The position numbers and the translations under genes were made by a program. Below the pieces are notes generated by a model that ran no database searches, had not been told where the DNA came from, and was given only the letters and a program-made list of their open reading frames with translations. Below, piece after piece: positions 4,870-53,126 of a stretch of DNA of 64,000 nt (position 1 is the first letter of the stretch; each line of letters starts with the position of its first letter). The DNA is taken from contig JAKJDL010000001.1 of NCBI GenBank assembly GCA_022705945.1, forward strand, positions 227,582-291,581. The letters run 5' to 3'. The stretch comes from Candidatus Omnitrophota bacterium. GTDB taxonomy: Bacteria; Omnitrophota; Omnitrophia; Omnitrophales; Aquincolibacteriaceae.

Positions 4870-5199
4870 TTATTTCCCAGTAAGATCAACCGGGCTGGGG
4901 ATATCAATATCCACAGGGATCGGGAAGGTAACCAAATGGACGGCACCGAGGAACGTGGTGACCGTGCTATCGATCAGGCCCTGGCCAACACCTTGCCAAA
5001 CATTCTTTCCTTCCGTGGAATAATCATTCGGCGTGGAGAAAATCTTCGTCCAACCAAGAACAGTATTGGTCAGACCATACGCCAGTTTTCCACCGGTCTT
5101 CTCGCCATAGTTCTTCCCATCGGCCCACGGACTCGCCGCGAATGCCGCAGGAACAAGAACCATGGAAAACACTATCGCCAAACTGATAATTTTCTTCAT
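4870..5199 (-). CDS. Small secreted protein, TIGR04073-like (exosortase-system-associated family).
   Basis: Signal peptide MKKIISLAIVFSMVLVPAAFA, then KLAYGLTNTVLGW...GVGQGLIDSTVTTFLGAVHLVTFPIP. This resembles the KLGRGxxNxxTGW...TFPxP pattern I recall for TIGR04073. An AGGAGG RBS is present. Confidence 0.55.
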   Translation of the reverse strand: MKKIISLAIVFSMVLVPAAFAASPWADGKNYGEKTGGKLAYGLTNTVLGWTKIFSTPNDYSTEGKNVWQGVGQGLIDSTVTTFLGAVHLVTFPIPVDIDIPSPVDLTGK

Positions 5200-27223: not shown

Positions 27224-27553
27224 TGGGAATAGCTCCTTTAGAAAGGTTTTACGCTTCGTTTCTTCAAATCGTTCGTTCATGGTTCTTTCAGCCCCGTTTT
27301 TATCCTGATAATTTGCCAGTCTCTCTCGCTCTGTCAAAATTCAGTCCTGACCGGGCCGTCACTTCCACTTATAATTATGAGGCCGTCCCTCAAAACAGCA
27401 CAGGGAGTATAATCCCAACTCTTTCTCTCTGCAATTCTTTTTTTACAAAGAATTTACAGGTCTTCGGGTTATCGGCGGATAGTTTGGTATCTTGAGGGTT
27501 TTTTAATGCTGCCGCACAGGCTGGCGCTACAAATCATTATATTTTTTGTTTGA

Positions 27554-35604: not shown

Positions 35605-37242
35605 TTATTTGGCACGCTTTTTTCCTCCCAACAAGACCCGCCCGCGAGCCATGGCAAATAACCAGAAATAGCCCGTATAAACCAAAACAAAAACCGAAAG
35701 AAAAATTAATGCTGTCCATTTTTTGATATTGCGCCTCATCTTTACAGGATATGCTTTCGATGCAGCGCAAACAGTCAAACCGGCATTCCCTGGTTCTTCC
35801 CTGTTGATACAACACAAAAGATCCAATCGTCGCTCTTTCCCTTCCGAGATATTCGTTTCCAGAACCCGGATGTTGGATCCGTCCGCTATTTGCAGCAACC
35901 GTTCGGCCCTTCTTTTTCTTACCGGATATGTATTTCCATCTTTGGTTTCCCACAAATAATACCAATCCTTTTCGGGCAGCGATTTAAGGCCGAACGCGGC
36001 GGCATGATCGTAAACATCGGTGCCCGCGATAAGGTGCAGGGTATTAATGGATTTGATCGCATCAATCACATCCGCGTTTTTTTTGACAAAATGGCAGGTT
36101 TCCCGGAAATCCTCTTCTGATTCTCCCGGAAACCCTATCATCACGAAAATTTCGGTTTCAATCCCAGCCCGTTTGGCGTTTCTAATGTTTTGCTCCGAGG
36201 TTTCCGCCGTAAACGGTTTTCGCATGATTTTTAAAATTTTATTTGACCCGGATTCAAGCCCTATCTGGAGTTTATAACAACCGGCTTCTCTCATCTTTTT
36301 GAAAAATTCGAACGTCATTTCTTCCCGAGGGGCGATTTGACCAGACCACCGCAGTCGTAAATTTTCACTCAGGATTTTATCGCAGATTTTTTCAAGGGTC
36401 GGCGGGTCACCGTTCAGCACGTTATCCACAACCGTGAATTCATGTATCTTTTTATTTTCGCAATGATACTTTAGTTCCCGGAGAGCCCAATCCGGCGATT
36501 TGGAACGGTAATAAGGAAAAAGTTTGTGATTTTTACAAAAAGCGCACCGGCTCCGGCAGCCGCGCGACCACTCCACCAGGAGTGCGTCGGAATATAAACT
36601 CATGTTAAATTCTTCATAAGTCGGGAAAGGGAGGGATTCCAAATGTTGGATGGGGGGCCTTTCCTGATACTCCCATGTCCCATTGTTTTTAAAGTAGCAG
36701 CCCTTTAAGCCGCTCAAACTTTTCCCATTTAAGAGACGATCGGTCAAATCAAACAACGTTTCTTCCCCTTCTCCTATCACGAAAAAATCAACGTATTCTG
36801 CCGCCTTTTCCAAAAAAATATGTCGTTGTTCTCGCGTGGATGTGGCAGGCCCGCCAAGAATGATACGTTTCCGAGGAGCTTTTTTTTTGATCGATTTAAT
36901 GAATTCAATTGTTAATCGCTCCTTAGGATCCACCACGGAAAACCCGAGAATCCCCGCTTCGCAATCGACGATTTCGTCAACAGCCTTATCAATGTCGTTT
37001 CTCAGAGCGGCCACAATCGCCGGGAAGGTTTTTTCGTTGGACCAATAATTTTTGTTTTCGACATGCCATAGGGCCTGCAATTCGGGATGATCGTTAAAAA
37101 AGGACTTATTCAAGTCAAACAATTTAAGGGAAATCTTTTTTGCCCTGAGGTACGAAGCCAAATAACCGATCCCGATATGAGGATTTTCCTGACTCCAGGG
37201 AGGCAGGTTAACAATAACAAGATCCATAGAAACCAATCGCAA
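35605..37242 (-). CDS. Cobalamin-binding (class B) radical SAM protein with a C-terminal transmembrane helix.
   Basis: N-terminal B12-binding-like domain DLVIVNLPPW...GIGYLASYL. Radical SAM motif CRSRCAFC. C-terminal WTALIFLSVFVLVYTGYFWLFAMA. Confidence 0.8.
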   Translation of the reverse strand: MRLVSMDLVIVNLPPWSQENPHIGIGYLASYLRAKKISLKLFDLNKSFFNDHPELQALWHVENKNYWSNEKTFPAIVAALRNDIDKAVDEIVDCEAGILGFSVVDPKERLTIEFIKSIKKKAPRKRIILGGPATSTREQRHIFLEKAAEYVDFFVIGEGEETLFDLTDRLLNGKSLSGLKGCYFKNNGTWEYQERPPIQHLESLPFPTYEEFNMSLYSDALLVEWSRGCRSRCAFCKNHKLFPYYRSKSPDWALRELKYHCENKKIHEFTVVDNVLNGDPPTLEKICDKILSENLRLRWSGQIAPREEMTFEFFKKMREAGCYKLQIGLESGSNKILKIMRKPFTAETSEQNIRNAKRAGIETEIFVMIGFPGESEEDFRETCHFVKKNADVIDAIKSINTLHLIAGTDVYDHAAAFGLKSLPEKDWYYLWETKDGNTYPVRKRRAERLLQIADGSNIRVLETNISEGKERRLDLLCCINREEPGNAGLTVCAASKAYPVKMRRNIKKWTALIFLSVFVLVYTGYFWLFAMARGRVLLGGKKRAK

Positions 37243-37281: not shown

Positions 37282-38181
37282 TTAGACAACAGCCGCTTCA
37301 CATCGTTTACAAAGAAAACTACCCGGGGAACCTTTTTTGCCGTCCCTCTGGTCCCGGACATCTTGGTATTTCGAAGAATTCCAGATCGTTTCGATGCTCT
37401 TTTCATTAAGATCCCCCAAAACGACCTCCCTTCTCCAATCCATGCAGCATAAGATAACTTTCCCGTCTTCGGTTACATGCATCATTTCGTTTGCCCAAAT
37501 ACTGGCGCAACCTTTGACCTGATGATGCGTAACATGAGGGATTGTTTTTACATTTCCTGCACGGCTGATCGGCTTTTCGAAAAAGCTAATTCTTTCTACA
37601 CCCTGTTTTCGCCAAAACTTAACTGCTTCATCTTTTTCTTCCGGGTTTAAATGGTCGTGTCCTAAAAATGTAATCATAACGTAATCTTTGATGTTCTTAT
37701 TCGACTTAACCCGGTCCAAAAAGCTCAGGACCCTTTCAATTGTCTTGGCGGCATCGATTCCCATAGCTTCTTTTATCGTTTCATGCCTGATCCCGTGCAA
37801 GCTTATCCCGATCCAATCTAGCCTGGAAGCAACCAATTGATCCGCCAAGGACGGGGTCAGAAGACTCCCGTTGGTGAGGATATGGACACAAGACCACGGA
37901 ACCTTAGTTTTCGCATAATCAATTCGTTCAATCAGAAAAGGGTCCGTTAAAGGATCATTGTTCATGTAGAGGATCATTCGCTCAATGTTCTTGTGGGCCG
38001 CACATTCATCTATGATTTTGCGGTAAAGTTTACCTTCCATCACCCTGGGAGGAAAAAGCTCCTTAATTTCCCGAAAGGGACAAAAAATACAGGCAGCATT
38101 GCACATGGATGTCGTTTGGATGGAAAACTTGTTAGGAAAATCTCTGGTCTGATCCATAAATTCTTGTGTAAATTTTTTCAT
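37282..38181 (-). CDS. Radical SAM/SPASM-domain protein. Paralog of the modules in the adjacent 1473-aa protein.
   Basis: TTSMCNAACIFCP (CxxxCxxC). The C-terminal Cys-rich region is GCASIW...ILCCMDW...GDLNEKSIETIWNSSKYQDVR...CKRCE. Confidence 0.8.
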   Translation of the reverse strand: MKKFTQEFMDQTRDFPNKFSIQTTSMCNAACIFCPFREIKELFPPRVMEGKLYRKIIDECAAHKNIERMILYMNNDPLTDPFLIERIDYAKTKVPWSCVHILTNGSLLTPSLADQLVASRLDWIGISLHGIRHETIKEAMGIDAAKTIERVLSFLDRVKSNKNIKDYVMITFLGHDHLNPEEKDEAVKFWRKQGVERISFFEKPISRAGNVKTIPHVTHHQVKGCASIWANEMMHVTEDGKVILCCMDWRREVVLGDLNEKSIETIWNSSKYQDVRDQRDGKKGSPGSFLCKRCEAAVV

Positions 38182-41100
38182 TCTGCATCAGATTATCGCA
38201 TTCTTTAAGGCATCCCACGTCTTGAAAATAGCTGTCCGTCTTGGGAAGAGATTCGGCCTTGCGTCGGAACTCATTGTAACGGCTGCCATACCATATTTTC
38301 TCAAAAGAGGTTACATTGATATTTCCCATGGTCTTTTTGACTCCACGACAGCAAGGGGCGACATCGCCGTCAGCCAGGACACGCGCAAACGCCCACCCCG
38401 CATAGCAAGGCATCTTCCCCGTACGCACTTCGTCATAGTTACCCGTCAAGGCTCCTTCGCACCGGAGCCGGGAAAGGAAACCGTCGAAATAATCCATTCT
38501 TAATTTTTTCTCTTCCGGAAGATTTTGCCATACTTTTTTCACCGCCTCGGCCTTTTGCAAGGCGATCTTCCGCTCTCCGGAATTTAAAAGCAGCTCTTCA
38601 GTTCCTTCCAAGGTATCCACCAAAGTGAAGTAGAGACCTTCGACGCCCAGGTCCAGGGCAAAACGGAACATTTCTTCAATTTCCATGTAGTTCAAATTGC
38701 ATATCACATTGCTCAAAACCACGGAAAGCCCTTGGTTTTTTTCTTTCATCAGGCGTTGCAGATTTTCATGAATCTGGCTAAAGCGGTCCGAAGAAGTTCC
38801 CGGATGTGTCTTCTGATAAATGAAGTCGCTCGCGGCCCAAAGGCTCACGGTCAATTCATCAATACCTGATTCTATCAATTTTTTCAGTTTGCCGTTGTTG
38901 ATAAGAGAAAAATTTGTCGTCACCGCACATCTCATACCGCTCGATTTTACAAGCCCGATAAATTCCATAATTTGCGGATGCAGAAACGGCTCCCCGCCGC
39001 CCGTAAATCTTATTTCTTTCGTTCCGAGTTTTTTTAGCGACGCTATAAGTTTTTTCGTCTCAGGGAAAGCCAATTCCTGTTTCAACCACCCGGCGGCAGG
39101 ACGCTTTTTCAAAAGCGGCGAGTAAAGCCAGCACCCGACGCATTTTTCATTACACCGGTTCGTCACATCAATGACAACCTGCTCGGGGCCGGCAAATGCC
39201 CGGCTACCGTGTCGCGCCCCCCTAATGACAGGGTCGGATTCTTTGCGGACTTCCGGCTTTGGTTTGAGAATTTTCGCTGCCAACTTCAAAATCATCTTTT
39301 CCCCCCATGTGAGGGACATGATTCTGTTGTGGATGTAAAGATTCCGCCCCACGTCATCGCAGCTTTTATAACAGCCTGCTTCCTTGGTGTCGGGATCATT
39401 GCCGATCATGGTAAAAAAAGAGTCTGTCTTTTTTTCTACCAGGGTTTTTTTGCGGAAATTCCTTTGCGATTCGCCGTTCCATATTTCTTTAAAACTGGAT
39501 TGGTGTAAATTACCTGTCGGGATCCGGTGGGCTTTCAGACACCCGTTAATATCCCCGTTCGGCATCACCCGAGCAAAATGCCAGCCGATATAACACGGCA
39601 TCTTGTCGATAATGTTCCGGTCATAAGTTGCCTTCATCAGATCGCTCGTTGAGGAAATTCTTCTTAAAAAAGACTGAAATCCAAAAAGGATCACTCCGTT
39701 GTATTTGTTTTTGTCATCCAAAACTCTCGCTATTTCCGTTGCCGAATCCTGAAGTTCACGGCTCTGCGCGGCATTCAGGAGAAGTTTATCGGTCTTCCCG
39801 GGCATGGTGTCAACCAGCGTGAATTCCACCGATTCACACTTGGTTTCCTTTGCGAAAAGAATCATGTCTTTTAGTTCGAAATAATTGAGCTTAGAAATAA
39901 CGTTGTATAGTTTGATGTAAGGGGTTTTGACTTTTGTCGCGTTTAAAAATTTCAGATTTTCCCTGATAGTTTCGAATGTGGCCTCATTTTTATTGGGGTG
40001 GGTGTCCGCATAGGTTTTAGCCGTGGCAGCCCAGGTGCTTACCGTAAGATGCTCAATTCCCAACCTGATGAGGTTTTCTATTTTTTCTTTATCGAGAAGC
40101 GTAAAGTTTGTGTTTACGTAACAAATGAACTGTTTTTTTTTGGCGTAAGCAAGAATCTCCATGATTTGAGGATGAATGAAAGGCTCTCCTCCGCCCGAGA
40201 AATAAATCTCCCGGGTTCCCATGGCCGATAATTGGTCCAAAAGCCGGATCACCAGATCAAAAGGAAGCTCCTGTCTTTTAATCTCCGGAGATAATAACCT
40301 CTCTTCCAGCAAAGGCGAATTGCACCAGCAGGCTATGCAGTCATTGTTGCAATTGTAGGTCAGATCGATTTGAACATGGTGAGGTCCCCTAAAAGCATAA
40401 TCACCCGTATAAATTCCCAATATATCTTGGTAGTTTTCTATTAATTTCCCTCCCCAAACATACCTGTGCAAATCTTTTAAGATAGTGAGAAGGCCCGCAT
40501 GCTTGAATTTATCCTTTAACGCTCCTAGCGGCCGGGGGTGTAAATAAAGTTGTTCTGCCTGCGTTATGTGAAAGACCTCATGCTCTTCCTTGATCCCCTT
40601 GAGAAATGCAAAAGCGGCCAGGTGCGGGAAGGAACCCTGGGAAGACAGTTTTAGGATGTGTTTGCCCGGGGTCACTTCAAGAACAGCCTCTCGAAACCAG
40701 CAAAGAGCGTCTTTTGTCCAGCCCTGCGTTGTCCGCCTCAGCCCCTCTCGCTGAATCAGCTTCCCGTCAAAATATATCTCGACCGGCCGTTCCTCCTGGC
40801 TGGCATAGCAGACATAGAAGGAATAAATTCCGGGCCTGGAAAAACCCAGTTCATACTGGGCAAAACTCCATCTCTGCCAACTGCAAACGATCATCTTGTC
40901 CGGAAAATCCGGAAGCGGAGATAAATTGCCGTCCGAAAACGCGGCTGCGGGCACTATAATTTTGGTTCCCGCTTCCGGAAGGGCTTTTTGAATAACACTT
41001 AACATTTTTTCCTGGGACAATGAAGCTTGTTTTCGTGCCTGCTTGCGCAAGAAGGCCTGATGAACCTCAAAGTTCATGCCCAGGTTATCGCAAGATTTCG

Positions 41101-42553
41101 CACATTGGATATTTTTGAAATACGGATGGCTTTTTTTCAGATTTTTTGCGTTATGCCTAAATTTCCGATAGGCAGAAGAATTCCATATCTTGGAAAACGA
41201 ATTCTGATTGATGTTTCCGAGGGGATGGTTCACGCTTTTGCAGCATGGGATAATCTCCCCCGTCGAAAGCACCCGCAAATACTTCCATCCAACGTAGCAG
41301 GGGATGGTGTTGATCATCTCCTCTTCGTATTTCTGATTGGAAGCGATTTCACGGGCCACTTCCCCATTTTCCGATCCTTGAGAAACATCGGGGTTGGGAA
41401 TACCCGCAAAACCACCTCCTCCCTGAGAAGCTGCATTTAATCGTTTCTCCAGGATGTAAAAACCAAACACGCGTAAAAACTTAAAGCTGATTTCTCCTTT
41501 TTTGTTCGCCGGGCAGCTCTTTCCCCAGCGGACACAGCGACGGCATTCCGAAAGAGGCATGGAGAATTTCAAACGGTGGCGGTAGGTTTCGATGAGCGGG
41601 TTATCTTCTTCCGGAGTGTGCGTGATTCCTTCGGGGCATGTTAACTGCCGGTTGATGACTCTTTTACGGCCAAGGATGCCCGGCTCTTCCTTAATCTGAA
41701 AACCCGGCGGCATACTGATAAAACGGCCGGGAAATTCCATCAGCTCCTTTTGTTCGTTTGTGTTTCCCCGGTCAAGATCCGTCATATTCCCAAGGTTCAA
41801 CTCCTTAAAATACAACCGATGATCCCGCGTTAATTCATAAAACTGTTTTTTGATTTCTTGCGCCTGGCGCGCGGAGAGAGAGAGAAAATCCGTCGCCCCC
41901 TTCACAATATCCATGAGCTGGAACTCCACGATTTCCGCATTCACCTCAAGGCAAAAATTCACCATCTCGCCTATTTCGGAGTAGTTTTGACTGCAAAGAA
42001 CATTATAGATTTTTACAAAGGGCAGATTCTTCTTTTGAAGAACTTTCAGGTCAGAAAGCCTTTGAAGGTTCTTTTTGAGGAGCAGGAAATCTTCCCTGCT
42101 CTTGCGCGGGTGGGTTTTGGCATAAGTTTCCGCCGTCCCTGCCCAAACACTTACGGTCAGCAAATCGAGATTGCTCCGGATCAGCCGTTGCATTTTTTCT
42201 TCATCAAGCAAGGTGAAATTTGTAATGACATTCAATTTAATATCATAACTTTTAATCAGCTCGATGATTTCAACGGCCTGTGGATGCATGAACGGCTCGC
42301 CTGCCCCCGAAATAATAATCTCCTCGGTACCCGCCGCTGAAAGTTCCCGGATCAAGGCTGTCGTTTTTTCAAAAGGAAGGATCTTGTTTTTGTCGCGGGG
42401 CGGTTTGGAAATAGACGGAGCGTGGACCCAGCATCCGATACATTGTTGATTGCATTGTCCGGTTAGGTCGATTTGGACGACTTGGGGTCCTTGGAAGGCG
42501 CGTTTCCCGTTTTTAACACCCTTCAAAAATTTAGAATCGAGTTCTTTCATCAA
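38132..42553 (-). CDS. 1473-aa protein of three tandem radical SAM/SPASM modules, with an internal ~200-aa domain of unknown function after module 1.
   Basis: Three CxxxCxxC-W sites: QIDLTGQCNQQCIGCW, QIDLTYNCNNDCIACW and VIDVTNRCNEKCVGCW. Each is followed by GAGEPF/GGGEPF and then a SPASM-like block: IPCYVGW...PCCKS...GNINQNSFSKIWNS..CAKSCD, MPCYIGW...GNLHQSSFKEIWNG..CYKSCD, and MPCYAGW...PCCRG...GNINVTSFEKIWYG..CLKECD. A single uninterrupted ORF is present in the provided track. Confidence 0.85.
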   Translation of the reverse strand: MMKELDSKFLKGVKNGKRAFQGPQVVQIDLTGQCNQQCIGCWVHAPSISKPPRDKNKILPFEKTTALIRELSAAGTEEIIISGAGEPFMHPQAVEIIELIKSYDIKLNVITNFTLLDEEKMQRLIRSNLDLLTVSVWAGTAETYAKTHPRKSREDFLLLKKNLQRLSDLKVLQKKNLPFVKIYNVLCSQNYSEIGEMVNFCLEVNAEIVEFQLMDIVKGATDFLSLSARQAQEIKKQFYELTRDHRLYFKELNLGNMTDLDRGNTNEQKELMEFPGRFISMPPGFQIKEEPGILGRKRVINRQLTCPEGITHTPEEDNPLIETYRHRLKFSMPLSECRRCVRWGKSCPANKKGEISFKFLRVFGFYILEKRLNAASQGGGGFAGIPNPDVSQGSENGEVAREIASNQKYEEEMINTIPCYVGWKYLRVLSTGEIIPCCKSVNHPLGNINQNSFSKIWNSSAYRKFRHNAKNLKKSHPYFKNIQCAKSCDNLGMNFEVHQAFLRKQARKQASLSQEKMLSVIQKALPEAGTKIIVPAAAFSDGNLSPLPDFPDKMIVCSWQRWSFAQYELGFSRPGIYSFYVCYASQEERPVEIYFDGKLIQREGLRRTTQGWTKDALCWFREAVLEVTPGKHILKLSSQGSFPHLAAFAFLKGIKEEHEVFHITQAEQLYLHPRPLGALKDKFKHAGLLTILKDLHRYVWGGKLIENYQDILGIYTGDYAFRGPHHVQIDLTYNCNNDCIACWCNSPLLEERLLSPEIKRQELPFDLVIRLLDQLSAMGTREIYFSGGGEPFIHPQIMEILAYAKKKQFICYVNTNFTLLDKEKIENLIRLGIEHLTVSTWAATAKTYADTHPNKNEATFETIRENLKFLNATKVKTPYIKLYNVISKLNYFELKDMILFAKETKCESVEFTLVDTMPGKTDKLLLNAAQSRELQDSATEIARVLDDKNKYNGVILFGFQSFLRRISSTSDLMKATYDRNIIDKMPCYIGWHFARVMPNGDINGCLKAHRIPTGNLHQSSFKEIWNGESQRNFRKKTLVEKKTDSFFTMIGNDPDTKEAGCYKSCDDVGRNLYIHNRIMSLTWGEKMILKLAAKILKPKPEVRKESDPVIRGARHGSRAFAGPEQVVIDVTNRCNEKCVGCWLYSPLLKKRPAAGWLKQELAFPETKKLIASLKKLGTKEIRFTGGGEPFLHPQIMEFIGLVKSSGMRCAVTTNFSLINNGKLKKLIESGIDELTVSLWAASDFIYQKTHPGTSSDRFSQIHENLQRLMKEKNQGLSVVLSNVICNLNYMEIEEMFRFALDLGVEGLYFTLVDTLEGTEELLLNSGERKIALQKAEAVKKVWQNLPEEKKLRMDYFDGFLSRLRCEGALTGNYDEVRTGKMPCYAGWAFARVLADGDVAPCCRGVKKTMGNINVTSFEKIWYGSRYNEFRRKAESLPKTDSYFQDVGCLKECDNLMQNEKIYTRIYGSDQRFS

Positions 42554-44952
42554 TTTTTTTGAGAATAACGCAGGTAGGCATAGGTTTTGGCCAAAGAATG
42601 CTTCAAACCTTTGCTGTGAGTTAAATCCAAAAATGCTTTAACACGGCCCGATAACCGCGTTTTTTTTCTTCGGTGTTCACCCCACGTTTTATAAGCATCC
42701 TTTTTTGCTTGAACAAGCGCCTGGGGCGTAAGCAAATCCGGTTTAAAAATACAGTTTTGATGACCGTCATATTCGTCCCAGTTTTTCGTCAGAATTTTTC
42801 CTGACCGGTCCAACTCGTCAAAAAGGGCTGTGCCCGGAAAAGGCGTCAGGATCGAGAATTGAACGGAATCCGGATCGCAGGCAATGGCGTAGCGAACGGT
42901 CTTTTGAATGCTTTCCTCCGTTTCCCGCATGAACCCGAAACAAAAAGTGAGATGCACTTTAATGCCGAGAGATCGGGTAAATTTGATCATCCGGGTGGTT
43001 TTGTCGAGATCCATTTTTTTCCCGGATTCCTCCAGAAGAAACTTGTCCGGAGATTCCACCCCGTATTTCACAGCGAAAAGTCCGGCGGACTTCATCTCCC
43101 GGAGAATTTGCTCGTCCATCAGATCAGCCCTGGCCATGATCGCCCAGGGCACTTTGTGCAATCCCCGGTCCTTAAGGAGTTTGCAAAACTCAAGCATCCT
43201 TTCTTTACCGATGTTGAAGGTGTCATCGTCAAAGTATACCGATCTGTAATGCTTCTCCCTGACGAGATATTCCATTTCATCAAGCACATCTTCAAGATCT
43301 CGAACCCGGTAATGATTCCCGCCATACATGACTTGAGGCCAAAGGCAAAAGCTGCAACCAAAACTGCATCCCCGCGATGCAAGCATTTGAACGGAGGGAT
43401 AGGGAATGTCTCCCGGAAGGTCCCAATAGTATTCCATGCCGGCCATCGTGCGATCAGGCCATGGTAACAAGTTGATGTCGGACGGTTCACGCGGCGGGTT
43501 TTTTACCGCTTTTCCCCTGTCTCGGTAGATCAGCCCGGCGATGCCAGAAAGTTCGCGGCCATCCTGCAAATGCCGGATCAATTCCAGCAATGTAAATTCG
43601 TATTCCCCGCACAGAACGAAATCAACGAATTCATGTTTCTCCAGGAATTCAGTGTTATAGATTTCGGCGTGAGGACCGCATAGAACAATAAATTTGCCGG
43701 TTTGAGAAAGCTTTTTAATGAACTTGAGATCATTGTTAAAGGAAGGAACGGACGTTTCAATGATGAAGTAGTCGGCATCGGAACTCAAAACCCTTTCCAT
43801 AAATCCGCGCTCCGTAATTTTTTCAGCAACCGCGTCGATCACGAGCGCATCCATGTTGTTTTTCCGAAGCAAGGATGCGGCATAAGCCAGAAAAAAAGGG
43901 AACGGCGTATAGAGGCCCTCGGACTCGTCTTTAAGATGAGGCCAGCGGGAACCGGCCCGGACCCCCCGTTTACTTCCGTCTCGCCATGGCAGATTTAACA
44001 ATAACGCCGAAGGCCTTTTCCCGCGAAGAAACTGCGGAGTTTTCCGATCAGCCTTTTTTTCGGCCTGGTCATCCCTCCAAAAAGCTTCTTGCCGCAATCG
44101 CTCCATTTTTTCATCAAGCTCTTGAGGTGAATCATATAAAGTGATAAGGGCAGAAAAGGACATAGCTTCTTTTGCCTTGTAAGAAATTCTCCCTTGGGTC
44201 CTGAACCCGACGATAAGCGCACCGTTCGGGGAAGGCGTGCCTTGAACAACAGGGAACAGAACCCCCTCCCTGGTTTCAATCGAGAAAGCGTGAGTCTGAT
44301 TATCCCGGACAGGAAAACGCGCTCCGACCATGGTAGCCGTTTGATCTTCCAGACACAGGCTGTGCCAATTTCTATCCGGACGAGGAATATCAGAAATTCT
44401 ATAATCACAGAACCAGCTTTTATAACAAGCCCGCATCAAACAAACATAACGGGTTTCATTGATGTGCATTTGCTCTTCAAATTCCGTGACCACTTTCCAC
44501 CTGATCTTTTTTTCGCTCAATATTTCTACCGTCCAGATTTGATGAAGCCGCAGCTCTTTATAACTCACCTTGAATTTAAATTCTTCACCGCCATTCTCCA
44601 GCATCGACCATTCCGCTTTTGAAGAATCAGTCCATAACCCCAGAGAATGGACCGCCGTGTTTAACCCGAGGTGTGTTAACTCGTATCGGTTATAAAAAAA
44701 TTTAACGCCGCATTCATAAAACAAAATATCCAGCTTCCCCGAAGAAATTTTTTGGCTGGGACAAACTTTTTCAACCGCCTGCCATCCTTCCGGAGCCATG
44801 ATGTTTGTGTACACCCATTTCCGGATCAAAAAAACCATGTAGGAAAAACCTTTGCCAAGGGCATGCCTCCACCCCCGCTCCCTGACATATCCGTTAAATT
44901 TTGAGAGCCCCTGTTTAAGCTTCAATTTCGATCTCTCCTTCAAAATAATCAT
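42550..44952 (-). CDS. Cobalamin-binding radical SAM protein (class B) with a ~300-aa N-terminal extra domain.
   Basis: B12-binding region ALVIDAV...FIVLCGPHA and radical SAM motif ASRGCSFGCSFC. The N-terminal domain is homologous to the Wzt C-terminal segment (see findings). There is a 4-nt ATGA overlap with the downstream gene. Confidence 0.85.
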   Translation of the reverse strand: MIILKERSKLKLKQGLSKFNGYVRERGWRHALGKGFSYMVFLIRKWVYTNIMAPEGWQAVEKVCPSQKISSGKLDILFYECGVKFFYNRYELTHLGLNTAVHSLGLWTDSSKAEWSMLENGGEEFKFKVSYKELRLHQIWTVEILSEKKIRWKVVTEFEEQMHINETRYVCLMRACYKSWFCDYRISDIPRPDRNWHSLCLEDQTATMVGARFPVRDNQTHAFSIETREGVLFPVVQGTPSPNGALIVGFRTQGRISYKAKEAMSFSALITLYDSPQELDEKMERLRQEAFWRDDQAEKKADRKTPQFLRGKRPSALLLNLPWRDGSKRGVRAGSRWPHLKDESEGLYTPFPFFLAYAASLLRKNNMDALVIDAVAEKITERGFMERVLSSDADYFIIETSVPSFNNDLKFIKKLSQTGKFIVLCGPHAEIYNTEFLEKHEFVDFVLCGEYEFTLLELIRHLQDGRELSGIAGLIYRDRGKAVKNPPREPSDINLLPWPDRTMAGMEYYWDLPGDIPYPSVQMLASRGCSFGCSFCLWPQVMYGGNHYRVRDLEDVLDEMEYLVREKHYRSVYFDDDTFNIGKERMLEFCKLLKDRGLHKVPWAIMARADLMDEQILREMKSAGLFAVKYGVESPDKFLLEESGKKMDLDKTTRMIKFTRSLGIKVHLTFCFGFMRETEESIQKTVRYAIACDPDSVQFSILTPFPGTALFDELDRSGKILTKNWDEYDGHQNCIFKPDLLTPQALVQAKKDAYKTWGEHRRKKTRLSGRVKAFLDLTHSKGLKHSLAKTYAYLRYSQKN

Positions 44953-47665
44953 ACTTTCCGGGCAACATTATTTGATTTTGCTCTCTCTGGAACTGGAGAA
45001 GGCGCCCGCAATACAATTGGTCCGTGTTTTCAATAACACCTCTCATTTCAGGACGGTTTTTACTCCTGAATTTAACGCGCAGAAAACCATTCCCGCAAGC
45101 TTCAATCTCCGAATCCTTCCCGTACCAAAACCGGAAAGGCAAAATGTCATATTGAGCCGTGTAATCCCCGGTAAACTTTCCCTTGGCCCCTCCGGATGAA
45201 CTCCAACGCCTGAAATCGGAAGAAAGCATCAGGTTGGCCTGATGTATTTCCAAATTGCATTTTTCATAAACTTCCATCACAACTTTCCAGTGAAGTGTTT
45301 TTTTGCTTTTGAAAAAAAACGACCAGGACTGAGAAACGGGGATGTGAGTCCAATGGCCCACCACACGTATTTTGTTATCTGCTTTTTCGATGAGATCCCA
45401 GGCGGCCTGATACGAGTCAAACCAAACATTGGAGGAACGAATCGATGTGAAAACACCCAAGCCGCAGGTCAATTCCTTCGGACCTAAACACAATTTGCTT
45501 TTGCCTCTGGAAAAAACAAATCGCCGGTCCGTTGAGGCAATCTCATACTCGCGATCGCCGGCCGCATCCCGATCAAAATACGGTTCCGCATCGAACGTTA
45601 CCTTCCCGTGAAAATAAACATGCTCTCCCGGCGCAAAGTAAACCTGATCATAAAAAACGATAGGTGAAAACTGGACGCAGGTCTCAGAGGTTTCTTCCGG
45701 CGCTGCTTTTTCAAAAACGGTCAAAATGGATCTGTCTGTTTTCTGGCAGGTTTCAAAAGCCAGATTGGAAAAAACAGAACCTTGTTTAGAGCCCAGAAGA
45801 ATCTTAGAAATCTTGTTCTCTTTCATTCTCACGGCGCTGAACATCTTTTCAGGACCAGCGCCTTCAAATCCGTTTTTCTCATATCTCGTCTGCCACTCCC
45901 GAAAGGGGGCATTCAACTCCATTCGGAAACTTCGATCTTTCATCTTGATCTTTTTGGAATTTTTAACTGTGACTTTAATATCAACCGAATTGGTTTCGCT
46001 GATTGAAAATTCGTAAATTTGGTAAAGATCCATCGGTTCAACAAAAGCATCGTAATAAAGAATCAAGCTGATGTTTTTCTCGTCCTTTTTTTTAACTTCC
46101 ATGGAGATACAATGCTCAAACGGCAAAACGGAATGGAAAGCGCCTCGGCTTCCGCTGACTTCCTGCCCCTTGAAATACAGCCTTATAGCCCTATGGTTCG
46201 TATCTATAAAAAGCCGCACATGATCGGAACCGATACTGTGAGAGGCTAAAAACTTTTCGGAAGGTTTGGTTTCTTTTGAGGAGAGTCTGGCGGCATCTTG
46301 TCCCGGGGATTCGCCAATCCGGACAGGCTTGATATTATGAAAAATATCTTCAAATTCCTCTTTGGCTTTGAGAAAGCGAATGGTCAAAGTGCTGGTCTTG
46401 GCCAGGAAGTGAGTTTGAACAACTCTTGAGGCTGTATCAAAACCCGTGTTGTGGATTTTAAATAAACAATCTTTCCGTTCTGCTTTGAAAAACAAAAAGG
46501 GGAGGCCTTTTTTTTCTTCTTTCGGCATGAGGCCCAGCACGGAGAGATCGTTTTCCAGGTTTAAAATTTCTTCTCTGTCGCCGGTAAAATTCGGAAAAAC
46601 AATTTCCTTGTTTAAGGTTTTGCATTTGGAATATTCGGAGGGGAAAGGCATGTCCATATAAAACTCTTTTGCACCCTTTTCCTCCGTCTCAAAAGCAAGA
46701 TCCAATTCCCTGCCGCGAAGACTCATCCGCCAAGCCTGCAAAACCTTCCCGCCCGCATCTTTCCCCGTTGCCGCGGCTTCTTCCTTTTTCAAGAGTTCAA
46801 CCTCCCAACTCAGGTTTGCGGAAGACACTTTGCAACCTTCATGGGGGGAAAGAACCACATACCCTCCGTTGCCATGGGAAATCAGATTCCCGCCTTGGTT
46901 TAAAAACAAACGCCCATTATTGAAAACGATCCGGGCATGTGGGTTTTCAAGAACACAAATTCCTTTTTTGTTGCCACAGGTTTCGATGTAATGAGGAATT
47001 ACCGCTTCGGGATCCCCTGCGGCTGTTTTTTTTCCTTTTTCCAACAACACAACCCGATCGCATAGTTTCTTGACCATATTCATGTCGTGGCTGACGACCA
47101 AAATGGTCTTGCCGGCATCCTTGAGTTCAAACACTTTTTTAATGCACTTTTGCTGCGCGTCTTGATCCCCCACGGCAAGAATATCATCTATCAGCAAAAT
47201 GTCCGGATCCGAAAAGATCGCCAGGGCAAAAGCCAGTCTCATGTACATCCCCTGAGAATAATATTTGATGGGTGCGTTTATAAACCGCCCCAGCCCCGAA
47301 AATTCAACGATTTTATTGATCTTCTCGTTAAGGGAGTTCTCGCTGATACCGTAGACCCCGGCATTTAAAACGATATTTTCGCGACCGGTAAATTCATGAT
47401 CAAAGCCTGCTCCCAGCTCCATCAGAGCACTTACGCGTCCGTTGACATCGAGACTGCCTTTATCGGGCATCAGCATCCCGGCGATCAAGCGGAGCAACGT
47501 TGTCTTTCCCGCACCATTCTCGCCTATCACCCCCACTACTTCCCCTTTGGCAACCGTCAGGCTCAAGTCCTGCAAAGCCCATACTTCTTCCCAGGAAACC
47601 TTTCCCGCCTCAACAAACTTGACGCGATATTTTTCCCAAAGATTCTGAATCGTTATGGCATTCAT
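44915..47665 (-). CDS. wzt: Polysaccharide ABC exporter ATP-binding protein Wzt/KpsT/TagH type, with a ~680-aa C-terminal extension.
   Basis: Walker A GENGAGKTT, signature YSQGMYMRLAFA and Walker B ILLIDDILAVGD within the first ~235 aa. A long non-ABC C-terminal region follows. Confidence 0.9.
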   Translation of the reverse strand: MNAITIQNLWEKYRVKFVEAGKVSWEEVWALQDLSLTVAKGEVVGVIGENGAGKTTLLRLIAGMLMPDKGSLDVNGRVSALMELGAGFDHEFTGRENIVLNAGVYGISENSLNEKINKIVEFSGLGRFINAPIKYYSQGMYMRLAFALAIFSDPDILLIDDILAVGDQDAQQKCIKKVFELKDAGKTILVVSHDMNMVKKLCDRVVLLEKGKKTAAGDPEAVIPHYIETCGNKKGICVLENPHARIVFNNGRLFLNQGGNLISHGNGGYVVLSPHEGCKVSSANLSWEVELLKKEEAAATGKDAGGKVLQAWRMSLRGRELDLAFETEEKGAKEFYMDMPFPSEYSKCKTLNKEIVFPNFTGDREEILNLENDLSVLGLMPKEEKKGLPFLFFKAERKDCLFKIHNTGFDTASRVVQTHFLAKTSTLTIRFLKAKEEFEDIFHNIKPVRIGESPGQDAARLSSKETKPSEKFLASHSIGSDHVRLFIDTNHRAIRLYFKGQEVSGSRGAFHSVLPFEHCISMEVKKKDEKNISLILYYDAFVEPMDLYQIYEFSISETNSVDIKVTVKNSKKIKMKDRSFRMELNAPFREWQTRYEKNGFEGAGPEKMFSAVRMKENKISKILLGSKQGSVFSNLAFETCQKTDRSILTVFEKAAPEETSETCVQFSPIVFYDQVYFAPGEHVYFHGKVTFDAEPYFDRDAAGDREYEIASTDRRFVFSRGKSKLCLGPKELTCGLGVFTSIRSSNVWFDSYQAAWDLIEKADNKIRVVGHWTHIPVSQSWSFFFKSKKTLHWKVVMEVYEKCNLEIHQANLMLSSDFRRWSSSGGAKGKFTGDYTAQYDILPFRFWYGKDSEIEACGNGFLRVKFRSKNRPEMRGVIENTDQLYCGRLLQFQREQNQIMLPGKYDYFEGEIEIEA

Positions 47666-48453
47666 GTTTTTTTGAGGATCTCCTGCTCATTTTTAAAATA
47701 ATAAGCGCATCCTGCCCCAAGAAAGATTAATGAGACAAGAAAAAGAAGTATCCACTCCCCCGCGCCGGGGCAAACGGCTTCGTAAAGAATGCTTCGGAAA
47801 GCGCTCACATAATAGGTCACCGGATTAAGCAAACAGATCCACCGGTAAGGGAAATCCAGCATTGTCTCGGAGTAAAAAATCGGGGTCATCCAAAACCAGA
47901 ACATCAGTCCTGTTGAAAGAAAATAGGAGGTGTCCTTGAAAAACGTGTTCACCGCCGCAAAAATCAACCCAAGGCCTAATGTAAATACAAGCATAAATAA
48001 AATCAGGAAGGCAAGAGCCGGAAGAAGCAAAAAAACAGCGGGCTGGATGACGATGTAAAACGGAATAAGGATAAAAAATCCCGGCAAAAAAATTAAAAAA
48101 TTCGAAAGTACCGCCGCCAGGGGAATAAATTCTCTCGGGAATACCCCCTGCCGCAGCATGTGACGGTTCGATGAAAATGCGTTGGTAGATTCACTGACCG
48201 ATTGGCTTATGAAAAACCACGGGATCAGCCCGCTGAGGATAAAGAATGTGTAATGAGGCATATCTACCTTAAACGCCAGCACAAAAACCGCGTTGATGCA
48301 AAAAGCCATCGCAAGCGGAATCACAAAAACCCACCAAACGCCCAGCTTGAGCCCCGCGAATCTTGCTTTCGTTTGAGACCGAGTCAGTGCCCAAAGCGCC
48401 TGCCGGTTTTTAAAAAAATTCCCGGCTTTTTGATTCAAACCGTCAAAGTTCAT
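47662..48453 (-). CDS. wzm: ABC-2 type polysaccharide exporter permease (Wzm/KpsM).
   Basis: 6-TM ABC-2 profile. There is a 4-nt overlap with wzt. Confidence 0.85.
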   Translation of the reverse strand: MNFDGLNQKAGNFFKNRQALWALTRSQTKARFAGLKLGVWWVFVIPLAMAFCINAVFVLAFKVDMPHYTFFILSGLIPWFFISQSVSESTNAFSSNRHMLRQGVFPREFIPLAAVLSNFLIFLPGFFILIPFYIVIQPAVFLLLPALAFLILFMLVFTLGLGLIFAAVNTFFKDTSYFLSTGLMFWFWMTPIFYSETMLDFPYRWICLLNPVTYYVSAFRSILYEAVCPGAGEWILLFLVSLIFLGAGCAYYFKNEQEILKKT

Positions 48454-48597: not shown

Positions 48598-49545
48598 TTA
48601 GTTTTTTTGAACATGCCGGATGAAACCGTTTCTTTGCGGCTTTTGGCAAGTGTCATTTTTCTTAAAAAAAATGACGGCAGTCTTCGGCCTAAAAAAAAGG
48701 ATATATGTCCAGGTGACAATCTCGTAAAAAAGCACGGGGATCAAACAGAGGAGCATCTCTGAAAGCGATTCATTTTTAATAATCGAAAGATACCGGTTCT
48801 TGATCAATTCCTTGTGCGCCGTATCATCAATATAGTGTCGGGCCATTTTTTTCCCCCGCCCTTTCGGATTTCGAATAGTTCCGCCCCGCACATGGTAGGC
48901 CAAAGCCAGAGGGGTATAGTAGGCCTTCCAACCTGCCCGTTGCGCACGCCACGCGAGGTCGAGATCTTCATAAAACATCCGGAATCGGGGATCGAAATAA
49001 TTCCGCCCTTCCTTGACGGCCTCCAGCATTTCTCTTCGATAAAAGGCCGCCGCTCCGCTCACACCGAAAACAAAACCGGACTGATTGAACTGTCCCTTGT
49101 CAATTTTTCCATATCCCCTTTCACGGGCGGTTCTCCATAATGTTAAAAAAAGACCCGTCGAATCAAGGGTTTTCCGGTCCGGCCGCATGATCTTTCCGCT
49201 CACCATTCCTATTTTTTCATTCTGCGCAAAACCCTCCAAAGCCTCTTTGATGAAATCCTTGTCCAGAATCGTGTCGTCGTTCAAGCACAGTATGAAATCC
49301 CCCGAACTTGCGGCTATCCCGAGATTAAGAGTGCTTCCAAAGTAAAAGTCCGCGGGCACATTGTGACAAACAACGGAGGGATAAACCTCCCGGGCCTTAG
49401 AAGCCGTTGCTTTATCCGGTGAGCTATCAAGTAGAATCACTTCACCGGGAGGCCTTGTCTGGGAGCGAAGGGATTTGAGACAATCGACATAATAATCTTC
49501 TCGGCCGCACGTGGGAATAAGAACACTGATAAGCCGGCTCGTCAT
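48598..49545 (-). CDS. Membrane-anchored family 2 glycosyltransferase (GtrB/CsbB-like polyprenyl-phosphate sugar synthase type).
   Basis: ISVLIPTCG...LLDSSPD...CLNDDT GT-A motifs plus C-terminal TM segment(s) LLCLIPVLFYEIVTWTYILFF. Its start ATG overlaps the stop of the upstream YfhO-like gene in ATGA. Confidence 0.75.
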   Translation of the reverse strand: MTSRLISVLIPTCGREDYYVDCLKSLRSQTRPPGEVILLDSSPDKATASKAREVYPSVVCHNVPADFYFGSTLNLGIAASSGDFILCLNDDTILDKDFIKEALEGFAQNEKIGMVSGKIMRPDRKTLDSTGLFLTLWRTARERGYGKIDKGQFNQSGFVFGVSGAAAFYRREMLEAVKEGRNYFDPRFRMFYEDLDLAWRAQRAGWKAYYTPLALAYHVRGGTIRNPKGRGKKMARHYIDDTAHKELIKNRYLSIIKNESLSEMLLCLIPVLFYEIVTWTYILFFRPKTAVIFFKKNDTCQKPQRNGFIRHVQKN

Positions 49546-51377
49546 AAGAGGGCCATAGCCGCGGTAGAGTTTTTTTTCCGGACAACGAAAAACCTGGCTC
49601 CCACCGCAAGCAGTGTCAGAACCGTGATGATACTGCCGAGCAAAAATCCCTTTAACCGGTACTTGAAGACAATTCGCCGAGAGCCTTTTTCGACGGCCGC
49701 ACTCAACAACCCTCTCGTATTCAGAACCTGAAAACCCTCGGCCTGCCAATTGCTGTGGAAGTTCTGGTTAAGGACAAGAATATCGGGCTCCAGGACCTCC
49801 GCATCAACAATAATCTTATTAGGGCTAAAAAAAACAGGACGGGCTTTATTGCCGTGATTCTTGAAAAAAACCTCCCCCTTGTAGGCCGGATTGGGGAATA
49901 GGGTATCGTTTGAATCCACAAAGTATCGCGGCAGCGCATATTCGCCGACCGCAATGTTCGCTTTCCAATCGATCGTTCCGATACCCCGCAAGAGATTAAA
50001 ATAGTAATTGCTGTTGAATGTCCTGGCATCGTAGCGCGGCAAATCCAATCCGCGAACATGGTAGAACTGCTTTTCCTTCAAGAGCGCCGGCCCGGAATGA
50101 GTAAACACTTCGGCGTTGGTGGGGATGTTAAAAAAGAAAAGCTGAAAGAGAGATATCAAACCGATCACGGCGACTCCGCAGCGAAGAAATCCGGCCTTTG
50201 TTTTTTTAAAAACCAAGTCAACAAATCCGCCGGCCAGGATCGCCAGAAAGAAAACGATAAAAAAATCATAGTATTTCAAGGGTTTGTGCATCGAGTGGAA
50301 CAGCGGTAAATGCCAAAGCATTTTAAAAAGATCGATGGGGGCGTTGTTTCCCATGGCAAGAAAAACCGCGATTGTTAATAAAAAAACAAACCCGAAGGAT
50401 TTCCTGACGTTCCCTCCCACAAAACCAAGGGCCATCACTATGGGGATAATTCCGACAAAAACTCTCGAATCTCCCATCGGCGCCGAAGGCCATGGCCGTT
50501 TATACAATAAAGAATCGAGAAGCGTCCTGAAGGTGTAGGCCATTTCAGACGCAACACCATAGTCATCGATCCCCCGGCTATCGTAGAGAAGCAGGTGTAT
50601 CATCGGAATAATTTTTACCATGGAAATAAGAATCGCCAGAAGAACACCGGCCGCAAGAGCCTTGGCGCCTTTCAACATGAATTCAGAGGGTTTTTCCTGC
50701 TCTCGAAACGGATCAAAGACCACCGTCAGGAATAAAAAAAGGAGCAAGGCAAGAAAAGCGACATTTCCGTCAAAAATCACGAGGCTCAAAAGGATTGAAA
50801 AAAGGTATAGAGGCTTTTCGCCTCCGTTTTTTTTGAAGCGGGTTATCAGGAAAAGAAGCGCCGGGAAAAGAAAATAGTGCATTTCGATAAAATTCCCGTC
50901 TTTGGCGGTCCATGGCATCCAGCTTGAAAATGCCAATATTAAGGCCGCGTAAGCCGCGGCGGCAGGATGATACCGGAGATTTTCTCGCGCAAGAAAAAAA
51001 ACACCCAATGTCCCCAAAAGATAAAAAAATAGTATGACGATCTTCGGCCCGATGATTTCATCGAATATAAGCGTCGGGAGAATGACGGGGCTGACCAGCG
51101 GAAATTCCGGATAGCCCGCAATAGGATACCCCCCGCAAACATACGGCGACCAAAGGGGTATTTGCCGAAAACACTGGAAGCTGTCTTTGATAAAGTGATG
51201 GTGCAAGTAAACCGTCAGCCAATCGTCATCCATGCTGAGTTGCCGGATATTGACGAATAAAGGAGATAAAAAAATAAAGCTCGCTACTAAAACGATCATC
51301 AACGCGACCTTATGTGTCGAAGGTTCCTTCTTGGGCGTCATGTATTTTTGTGTTCCCGTCACAAAAGCCGTTTCCAT
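49542..51377 (-). CDS. YfhO-like polytopic membrane protein (GT-C-fold glycosyltransferase candidate), paralog 1.
   Basis: Multi-TM protein with IPLWSPYVCGGYPIAGYPEFPL, a motif shared with two paralogs. Large C-terminal soluble domain and final TM. Confidence 0.55.
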   Translation of the reverse strand: METAFVTGTQKYMTPKKEPSTHKVALMIVLVASFIFLSPLFVNIRQLSMDDDWLTVYLHHHFIKDSFQCFRQIPLWSPYVCGGYPIAGYPEFPLVSPVILPTLIFDEIIGPKIVILFFYLLGTLGVFFLARENLRYHPAAAAYAALILAFSSWMPWTAKDGNFIEMHYFLFPALLFLITRFKKNGGEKPLYLFSILLSLVIFDGNVAFLALLLFLFLTVVFDPFREQEKPSEFMLKGAKALAAGVLLAILISMVKIIPMIHLLLYDSRGIDDYGVASEMAYTFRTLLDSLLYKRPWPSAPMGDSRVFVGIIPIVMALGFVGGNVRKSFGFVFLLTIAVFLAMGNNAPIDLFKMLWHLPLFHSMHKPLKYYDFFIVFFLAILAGGFVDLVFKKTKAGFLRCGVAVIGLISLFQLFFFNIPTNAEVFTHSGPALLKEKQFYHVRGLDLPRYDARTFNSNYYFNLLRGIGTIDWKANIAVGEYALPRYFVDSNDTLFPNPAYKGEVFFKNHGNKARPVFFSPNKIIVDAEVLEPDILVLNQNFHSNWQAEGFQVLNTRGLLSAAVEKGSRRIVFKYRLKGFLLGSIITVLTLLAVGARFFVVRKKNSTAAMALL

Positions 51378-52363
51378 TTTTTAAACAACTCATAGGCGGA
51401 ACGAAAGTTCCAGGAACCCAGGAGGTTAAAATCAACGCAGGCGCTTGACCAACACCCGTCACAAGACGGCTGTCTGAGCATTTGAAGGGCTTTTTCGAAA
51501 GAATGCTTCCTAAGATCAATCCCGTCCGAGCGTTTTAAAATTAAAATCGGTGTCCAGCCACAGGCAAGAAGTAACCCGTCGGGCTCGATCCGGCAGCTCA
51601 ACGAACCGGCAAAACAATTTATCCGGTTTTTTTGAGGCCATAGCTTTAAATGCTCCAGAGTGGCCAAAGAGGTGGCAATAACCTCACCGCCTTCACGTTT
51701 ATGGGCAATCAAGTAATCTATAGCCTTTTGATACGCCTTGTCCGGCGTAGCGATGGGGTTAGGACCTTTTCCCCCGAGCAACAAAAGAGACGCGGGCTGA
51801 AATGAAACCTGGATACGGTAACCTTTGGCAATCCGTATTACCTCCGGTATAAAGGCAGCGTTAAGGCTTGATATAACCGTATTAAGCTCGACCGCAATCC
51901 CGGCCTGTCGCGCAGTTTTAATGGCGGTAACCACTTTCTGGAAATTCCCTTTACCGCGGATTGAGTCATGGATTTCTTCCGGACCATCCAAACTGATTTT
52001 TAATAAAAAGATTTTTTTTATTTTTGATATTGCGTCGGGAACCCGTTTTCCGTTTGTGTTGAGAACCACGCGCAAACCAAGGGCTGCCGCCCGGTCAAGG
52101 ATTAACCCGATATCTTCTCTTAATAGAGGCTCCCCGCCGGTAAAAACAACTCCCCAAACCCTTGCGCGATGCAACTGTTCAAGGATCTCAAGCGCCTCAC
52201 GAGTCGAAAGTTCCTCCAGAACCTCATGGTTCAAACGGCAATAAAGGCACTGTTCGTCACACCGATAAGTCAGGGCCCAACTTACAGCGAGAGGACTTTT
52301 AAGCTTAAACACCCTCGCTTTTAAAAGACCGTAACAGATCTTTCCCAAACTACGAATCTTCAT
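51359..52363 (-). CDS. Radical SAM/SPASM-domain protein.
   Basis: LAVSWALTYRCDEQCLYC, FTGGEPLLRED and C-terminal Cys cluster C..C...C...CDGCWSSAC. Paralog of the 60185 gene. Confidence 0.8.
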   Translation of the reverse strand: MKIRSLGKICYGLLKARVFKLKSPLAVSWALTYRCDEQCLYCRLNHEVLEELSTREALEILEQLHRARVWGVVFTGGEPLLREDIGLILDRAAALGLRVVLNTNGKRVPDAISKIKKIFLLKISLDGPEEIHDSIRGKGNFQKVVTAIKTARQAGIAVELNTVISSLNAAFIPEVIRIAKGYRIQVSFQPASLLLLGGKGPNPIATPDKAYQKAIDYLIAHKREGGEVIATSLATLEHLKLWPQKNRINCFAGSLSCRIEPDGLLLACGWTPILILKRSDGIDLRKHSFEKALQMLRQPSCDGCWSSACVDFNLLGSWNFRSAYELFKKWKRLL

Positions 52364-52364
52364 T

Positions 52365-53126
52365 TCAAATTTCTTTCTCCAGAGCCGCAGGAAACCTGAT
52401 GGATTTTTTTTCCGCCAATAACACCAAAATCTCTCCGACATCAAAAGGATAATTTAAAAAAGACAACATATAAAGTATTGCTGAAACCCACTTTTGAAAA
52501 ACACCGTATTTTTTCAGAAATTTTTTTGAAACGTTCGCAAAGCCGAGGATGTTGCCCATTGTCAGATACAGTGTATGCACCGGGAATCCCCAGTACCTTG
52601 AAAACAAAAGTTTCATGTCATTCTCCCTAAGGGGACCCTCGAAATCTTCCTTTCTAAAGTTCCTTAAATGCCCTCGCGCCTCAAGAAACTTATGCATCTT
52701 TCCGCTGGGCACAGTAATAAGAACATAGCGGCGGGACATGGCACAAAGATTATCGAAAGCCTGTCGCCAGTTTTTGGCGGATTCTAAAACATCTCCACAA
52801 ATCACCATGTCAAACCTGGCCCCTCCCGAATAGCTCCCGCTGGAAATATCAAGGGTTTCAAAATGGACACCGGGAAACATTTTTTTATTCCTCTCTATAA
52901 GCAGAGGTGATAGATCACAAGCACTTACAATCTTTCCTTCTTCCAGGAGAGGCTGAATCATGTAGCCATATCCACAGCCCACATCAATACAAGATCGAAA
53001 ATTCATCTTTCGGATGATTGACATCAGAATGCGTCTCCGATGCCGAGCGGAAGGTCCGTACCGCTCCGCATCTTCATGCGAAAAGAACTTGTCTGTGCAA
53101 TGATTTTTCATTCTTCCAACCTTCAT
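52365..53126 (-). CDS. Class I SAM-dependent methyltransferase (Methyltransf_11/12 type).
   Basis: CIDVGCGYGY motif I and DMVICGDVLE. Confidence 0.8.
   Translation of the reverse strand: MKVGRMKNHCTDKFFSHEDAERYGPSARHRRRILMSIIRKMNFRSCIDVGCGYGYMIQPLLEEGKIVSACDLSPLLIERNKKMFPGVHFETLDISSGSYSGGARFDMVICGDVLESAKNWRQAFDNLCAMSRRYVLITVPSGKMHKFLEARGHLRNFRKEDFEGPLRENDMKLLFSRYWGFPVHTLYLTMGNILGFANVSKKFLKKYGVFQKWVSAILYMLSFLNYPFDVGEILVLLAEKKSIRFPAALEKEI

Follow-up and report, generated by a model that had tools for sequence, protein, structure and literature searches.

Substrate-recognition domains of Wzt, the ATPase of polysaccharide-exporting ATP-binding cassette (ABC) transporters, are a checkpoint that couples completion of the polymer to its export, and one structural type has been characterized so far. 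This classical carbohydrate-binding domain (CBD) brings capped O-antigen to the transporter and is able to act in trans (PMC9445017). Here we describe, in a 64,000-nt stretch of DNA from a Candidatus Omnitrophota bacterium (assembly GCA_022705945.1, contig JAKJDL010000001.1, positions 227,582 to 291,581 of the forward strand; hereafter the window), a domain with a second, unrelated predicted fold at that position of Wzt. The shared unit, which we call the module, is a complete domain of ~210 aa, present in three tandem copies in Wzt and in one copy in the adjacent B12-binding radical S-adenosylmethionine (SAM) enzyme; in relatives it is sometimes found on a radical SAM enzyme and the transporter in one polypeptide. 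Wzt (916 aa, open reading frame (ORF) at 44915-47665, ABC_tran 77 bits) consists of a nucleotide-binding domain (NBD) followed by the three modules, while the radical SAM enzyme (800 aa, ORF at 42550-44952, Radical_SAM 70 bits, B12-binding 25.6 bits) carries its copy at the N-terminal side. All window features given below are on the minus strand.

Composition-adjusted BLASTP gave a sole significant alignment between the two proteins, residues 731-821 of Wzt (45203-45475) against 91-180 of the radical SAM enzyme (44413-44682), with 26% identity, 53% positives, one gap and 46 bits (E = 6e-9), and tblastn finds no other cross-match in the window. A first-pass annotation had aligned the segment near the Wzt C-terminus with the N-terminal domain of the adjacent enzyme by eye, over ~90 aa and without gaps. 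The homology is borne out by both BLASTP and profile comparison, and W-x-DS-x2-A-x-W, a second W (25 positions on) and WKVV-x-E-x2-E are indeed in register, but the 'KK' is shifted by one residue, one gap is required close to the start of the alignment, and the homologous unit is really ~190-215 aa long according to hhalign and hidden Markov models (HMMs). Specifically, a profile made from the terminal region of Wzt and seven database homologues, compared by hhalign with a profile of the enzyme's N-terminus and the orthologue from a related locus (L001), aligned Wzt 706-895 with residues 66-253 of the enzyme over 179 columns (98.8% probability, E = 5.3e-17). An HMM of 343 database module segments, containing no radical SAM N-terminal sequence, matched residues ~65-279 of the enzyme (44116-44760) at E = 1.3e-33, the next-best ORF of the window standing at E = 0.22; in the reverse direction, an HMM of three radical SAM N-terminal modules matched 341 of the 343 database modules. 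Chance or compositional similarity without shared ancestry could appeal to a pairwise identity of just 26% over 91 residues, but the composition-adjusted BLASTP (E 6e-9), the profile-profile comparison (E 5e-17), the radical SAM-free profile (E = 1e-33 over the full domain), the same predicted folds and an arrangement kept in 6/6 loci exclude it, and with it a low-complexity origin of the match.

The 343-segment HMM matches Wzt three times (~238-430, ~476-697 and ~707-916), with the reservation that it contains the window's own Wzt (P0014 in the protein database, where profile search likewise finds three module stretches). Module 1 (residues ~238-430, 46376-46954) is the most diverged copy and scores 162 bits with our first HMM and 100 with the 343-segment one, against 187 and 103 bits for module 2 (~476-697, 45575-46240), and both HMMs include P0014. 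Module 2 can be aligned with the other copies and module 1 aligns with them over its full length in a multi-class alignment, the latter reaching just E = 0.014 (Wzt 239-319) against the terminal-module profile alone. Module 3 (~707-916, 44918-45547) is the terminal copy, the one the first-pass annotation had seen. Self-BLAST found no internal repeats in Wzt and the window's Wzt gene has no repeats at the DNA level, the three-copy structure being recognizable solely with multi-class HMMs. HMM search of the window's ORFs revealed no further copies, including in the 1473-aa protein encoded downstream, where one had been suspected in an insert (hhalign E = 0.48, no HMM match).

Structure prediction gave the Wzt and radical SAM copies the same fold, as had been anticipated: a beta-domain with the galactose-mutarotase-like supersandwich fold, which superposes over most of the module with a high Z-score. 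None of the four copies has a Pfam match even at E ≤ 1, Aldose_epim included, and none has a PDB sequence match by single sequence (phmmer) or by profile; identity to epimerase structures is 6-13%. In most glycoside hydrolases (GH) a domain of this fold is an accessory and has no catalytic role. The modules might instead be catalytic, acting as mutarotases or epimerases on sugars of the polymer, as their fold class would allow; the low identity to epimerases, the missing Aldose_epim match and the arrays of 2-8 diverged tandem copies, atypical for enzymes, make this very unlikely. No transmembrane (TM) segment was detected in Wzt or in the radical SAM enzyme (maximal 19-residue hydropathy of 1.54 and 1.0, against 2.97 in Wzm, the permease partner), and therefore all four modules are placed in the cytoplasm. 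Neither a domain-database entry nor a paper on the module or on a coupling of radical SAM enzymes with Wzt was found in the literature searched. We regard the module as an unannotated domain family and as a Wzt extension of a different fold, in tandem and common to tailoring enzymes, with high confidence as to its anatomy and moderate confidence as to its function.

The arrangement was compared between the window and five further recovered loci (L001-L005). In all six, an orthologue of the window's radical SAM enzyme is present with exactly one N-terminal module, the orthologous catalytic cores of L001-L005 scoring 460-780 bits against the window's core. It lies directly downstream of a multi-module Wzt in five of the six loci, with one extra B12-radical SAM gene between them in L003, and radical SAM-SPASM genes or domains come next after it. 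In the window the 3' end of the Wzt gene overlaps the start codon of the radical SAM gene by 38 nt (44915-44952), and overlaps of 38, 14 and 32 nt occur in L002, L001 and L005, making translational coupling possible. In L004, a 2-kb gap in the gene calls downstream of Wzt (1238-3322) yields the module-bearing orthologue on six-frame translation; a frameshift or an assembly error apparently separates it from the next ORF (3010-4992). Similarity matrices of the radical SAM modules and of the Wzt terminal modules group the loci in the same pairs (window with L002, L001 with L004, L003 with L005), which fits co-inheritance as a cassette. A word-indexed search with residues 1-330 of the enzyme and a pattern scan of metagenomes returned no relatives, and a genome scan returned one locus; because L001-L005 exist, the empty results reflect limited sensitivity and not rarity.

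When 1.84 billion representative proteins were searched exhaustively with the profile, 580 family members were found at E ≤ 1e-3, of which 470 reach E ≤ 1e-10. Matched stretches typically number 2-8 per protein, and the proteins fall into length classes of ~690, 910, 1130 and 1355 aa, extending up to 2244 aa. Conserved across the family are the T/G of ELTxG and the motifs W-x-DS-x2-A-x-W, Q-x-W, Y-x2-W, LP, N-x-D and R-x2-Q. All members with a named source are from Candidatus Omnitrophota, and going by these named records the family appears confined to that uncultured phylum. In the Wzt gene of L001, a metagenome contig (8249-9921), one module plus linker (699 nt, 233 aa) is tandemly repeated at 95-98% DNA identity beside an assembly gap. 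Variation in module number (2-8) could stem from recent tandem duplication, and the L001 repeat could alternatively be an assembly artefact. Architectures were drawn from the best 150 of the 580 representatives, so that frequencies are biased to Wzt-like proteins: 88 of 157 classifiable sequences are an NBD with 2-7 modules, and most others are fragments of such proteins. Among the remainder, P0081 joins ABC_tran, five modules and a radical SAM-SPASM enzyme in a single chain of 1856 aa, P0082, P0139, P0147 and P0151 combine 2-4 modules with radical SAM-SPASM, and P0092 reads B12-radical SAM, module, radical SAM-SPASM, module. The catalytic parts of P0092 are 53% identical to the core of the window's 800-aa enzyme and 48% identical to the second unit of the 1473-aa protein, and these identities mark it as a fusion of the orthologues of two genes that are neighbours in the window. 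In the other five fusions, the radical SAM-SPASM parts likewise have their best window matches in units of the 1473-aa protein. Finally, P0137 (GT39/PMT_2, from a Ca. Omnitrophota metagenome-assembled genome) is a GT-C glycosyltransferase with three modules at residues ~608-1171; about nine TM-like segments precede them.

These fusions bear on the main rival explanation, in which the modules contact each other or the Wzt NBD and tether the radical SAM enzyme into an export-tailoring complex with no glycan bound. The single chains P0081 and P0092, the latter with two radical SAM enzymes and interspersed modules, show that the partners work in proximity, and tandem beta-sandwich arrays commonly serve as scaffolds. 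Classical Wzt CBDs also dimerize (PMC9445017). Such docking is nevertheless improbable: the fold is overwhelmingly tied to carbohydrate-active proteins, the module of P0137 sits on a glycosyltransferase that has no NBD, and the terminal module has many invariant residues, polar and aromatic (E, Q, N, D, R, Y, W), that resemble a ligand site more than an interface. Should the C-terminus of P0137 be periplasmic, the module would occur outside the cytoplasm too, and glycan binding would gain weight over docking to an NBD.

The homology, the fold class, the copy number, the conserved cassette and synteny and the recurrent fusions are established. The best overall explanation, and on balance a probable one, is that the shared complete module acts as a carbohydrate-binding or targeting domain and couples tailoring with export. 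The modules of Wzt would hold the cytoplasmic lipid-linked polymer, and the radical SAM tailoring enzymes would be brought onto the substrate of the exporter by their own copy, so that modification would be coupled to export. A cytoplasmic glycan-binding or targeting module common to the exporter and the tailoring enzymes is also the most economical reading, and we consider it the most likely. Several points weigh against it. Sugar binding is suggested by fold class, with ligand binding predicted, and the P1 domain of YidC has the same fold yet no known lectin role, so that the fold class alone is no proof. The structure model of the radical SAM copy was built on an alignment of Wzt modules and is of only moderate confidence in its second half. 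The radical SAM copy is without the invariant motifs of the Wzt terminal copy (EYTxDYDILPFRFWYG, ENTD and RLLQYQK), so the two may bind different things. Radical SAM and Wzt modules of the same locus show no significant extra similarity to each other (p = 0.12, n = 6), and the bias of the sampled architectures to Wzt-like proteins belongs here as well. A bolder version, possible but doubtful, is an Omnitrophota assembly line built on a dedicated glycan-recognition module given to the exporter and to several radical SAM enzymes. The 2-8 modules of Wzt would be the track or ruler that holds the lipid-linked polymer during radical tailoring (C-methylation, cross-linking or ring rearrangement), with the enzymes docking on that polymer via their own copy and export licensed only afterwards.

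Concerning the chemistry, the catalytic core of the radical SAM enzyme (residues 317-800, 42553-44004; Pfam, NCBIfam) holds a probable B12-binding domain at 354-458 and a radical SAM domain at 526-688 with the CxxxCxxC motif in 'GCSFGCSFC'. The radical SAM domain is secure (PF04055 70.2 bits, cut-off 29.5), while the B12-binding domain scores 25.6 bits with PF02310, under the cut-off of 32.1 (E = 1.2e-5), and is supported by full-length alignment of the core with the B12-radical SAM families HpnJ and BchE in NCBIfam. The HpnJ model matches the core end-to-end (residues 317-757) at E = 6e-69, and BchE does so at E = 1e-42. Its score for HpnJ (TIGR03471) is 233.1 bits against an equivalog cut-off of 577.6, and since the resemblance to HpnJ and BchE is far under equivalog thresholds, the chemistry is not assignable. 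The enzyme differs from HpnJ in its added N-terminal helical region and module and in the lack of a hopanoid context. The N-terminal region (residues 1-52, 44797-44952) is basic, with helices at 6-26 and 28-52 in a low-confidence AlphaFold2 (AF2) model, and is conserved in the orthologues (K18, F19, Y22, G27, A31, L32, G35, Y38, F41, L42, R44); hydropathy does not mark it as a TM segment, and it could be an amphipathic helix that binds the membrane or a partner.

The likeness to HpnJ is of interest for another explanation, that of the first-pass annotation, in which the radical SAM module and the Wzt terminal module read the same chain-terminating epitope, the B12-radical SAM enzyme installs this cap (C-methylating or rearranging the sugar at the non-reducing end, for instance) and only capped chains are exported by Wzt. 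HpnJ, the nearest named family by sequence match, acts on a sugar moiety, and many B12-radical SAM enzymes are methyltransferases. The radical SAM module is moreover nearer to the Wzt terminal copies than to the penultimate ones (Smith-Waterman 96-214 against 26-141; median of 52-60 against 35-45 bits with the radical SAM-derived HMM), and it is also less similar to the first copies than to the terminal ones. The two genes overlap, and a C-terminal binding domain is the mark of the cap-dependent class of Wzt (PMC9445017). Against this stand the absence from the radical SAM copy of invariant motifs specific to the terminal module, the fact that one cap does not call for arrays of 2-8 tandem copies, a distinct SAM-dependent methyltransferase of the cluster (52365-53126) as an equally possible terminator, and several other radical SAM enzymes of the cluster that lack the module; we therefore hold it to be rather unlikely.

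Both genes lie within a 35-kb minus-strand glycan cluster (~29-63.7 kb of the window) that also encodes sugar epimerases and dehydratases, GT2 and GT4 glycosyltransferases, a GDSL esterase and a DegT aminotransferase. Wzm (263 aa, 47662-48453; Pfam ABC2_membrane E = 3e-13, strongly hydrophobic segments) is the ABC-2 permease partner of Wzt. Immediately downstream of the B12-radical SAM gene, and in the same cassette as it and Wzt, is the gene of the 1473-aa protein (38132-42553), with three Radical_SAM and three SPASM stretches. The insert of ~200 aa between its units 1 and 2 (residues ~490-720, 40394-41086) has no Pfam match, and its sole PDB match, a 'putative polysaccharide-binding protein', is non-significant (E = 0.77); the insert may be a binding domain of another kind. 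The cluster holds eight radical SAM genes (four of B12 type), a density unusually high for a polysaccharide locus. Six of them, three of B12-type (35605-37242, 37282-38181, 51359-52444, 56445-57872, 60185-61174 and 61171-62697), contain no module. Three YfhO-like GT-C membrane proteins and one protein of LPG_synthase_TM type (49542-51377, 54536-56467, 57876-60008 and 62694-63686) suggest additional steps of glycosylation or modification outside the cytoplasm, following export. Just outside the cluster there is a complete EcoRI-like restriction-modification pair (23231-25010; EcoRI endonuclease family E = 2e-128, N6/N4 DNA methylase E = 4e-53), and upstream of the cluster are a CstA carbon-starvation transporter and an autotransporter beta-domain protein (21152-22837 and 26258-27337).

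For the study of these clusters the module offers a testable handle, both on the targets of the many radical SAM enzymes in Omnitrophota surface-glycan clusters and on the way tailoring is coordinated with export, and the family of 580 representative proteins could enter domain databases. It also corrects the annotation of the deposited records, which is 'TagH' for Wzt (OQA58389.1, Ca. Omnitrophica bacterium ADurb.Bin277) and the generic 'Radical SAM superfamily protein' for the B12-radical SAM enzyme (OQA58388.1). The NBD of Wzt (residues 1-235, 46961-47665) has its ABC_tran match at residues 31-161 and aligns with TagH and Wzt NBDs over residues 12-229. The best NCBIfam matches, TagH and galactan Wzt, are NBD alignments only and miss their equivalog cut-offs (198.7 against 538, 183.9 against 320 and 154.8 against 400 bits), yet an NBD that most resembles TagH and Wzt, together with the adjoining ABC-2 permease gene, identifies an exporter of the Wzt/TagH type. 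Compared with Bacillus subtilis TagH, the NBD (199 bits to PRK13545, cut-off 538) and the permease partner are alike, whereas the C-terminal part of TagH is extracytoplasmic and the window's Wzt has no TM segment after the NBD. A TagH-like extracytoplasmic topology is thus ruled out, and the name 'TagH' is an over-annotation in view of the score below the cut-off, the match restricted to the NBD and the missing TM segment.

The superfamily of mutarotase-like domains comprises aldose 1-epimerases, accessory domains of GH2, GH15, GH36, GH38, GH65, GH94, GH97, GH174 and polysaccharide lyases, as well as OpgG/OpgD and YidC P1. The module is only 5-14% identical to these, has no Pfam or PDB profile match, and sits on a cytoplasmic ABC ATPase and on radical SAM enzymes instead of hydrolases, lyases or free epimerases. 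Concerning radical SAM enzymes, the peptide-modifying radical SAM/SPASM maturases carry the recognition element of ribosomally synthesized and post-translationally modified peptides (RiPP), a non-catalytic binding domain fused to the radical SAM core that captures the polymeric substrate. The module follows the same logic, with a variable position (N-terminal in the window, C-terminal or internal in P0092); it differs in being a beta-supersandwich and not a winged helix, and in having a presumed glycan and not a peptide as its ligand.

The classical Wzt_C domain is ~150 aa long and, to our knowledge, has not been described as shared with known terminators such as WbdD or WbbB. The first-pass annotation had taken the Wzt C-terminus for a classical CBD of this kind, and its functional interpretation is supported in part, the proposal of a common terminal epitope being weakened by the missing motifs and by the multi-copy arrays. 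The position fits, C-terminal to the NBD of a Wzm-paired Wzt, but PF14524 has no match in whole Wzt at E ≤ 0.01 or in single modules at E ≤ 1, and the fold is not a jelly-roll; since neither sequence nor fold agrees, the module is not of the Wzt_C family. Like the CBDs of Escherichia coli O9a, R. terrigena / Klebsiella pneumoniae O12 and A. aeolicus (PF14524), it is a cytoplasmic beta-sandwich domain C-terminal to the NBD, encoded with a Wzm/Wzt pair in a glycan cluster and expected to recruit lipid-linked polymer (PMC9445017). It differs from the classical domain, a single-copy jelly-roll that dimerizes by exchange of its C-terminal strand, in its supersandwich fold of ~210 aa, in its 2-8 tandem copies and in being borne by tailoring enzymes as well. 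In function the module would be an analogue of the classical Wzt CBD, though not homologous with it.

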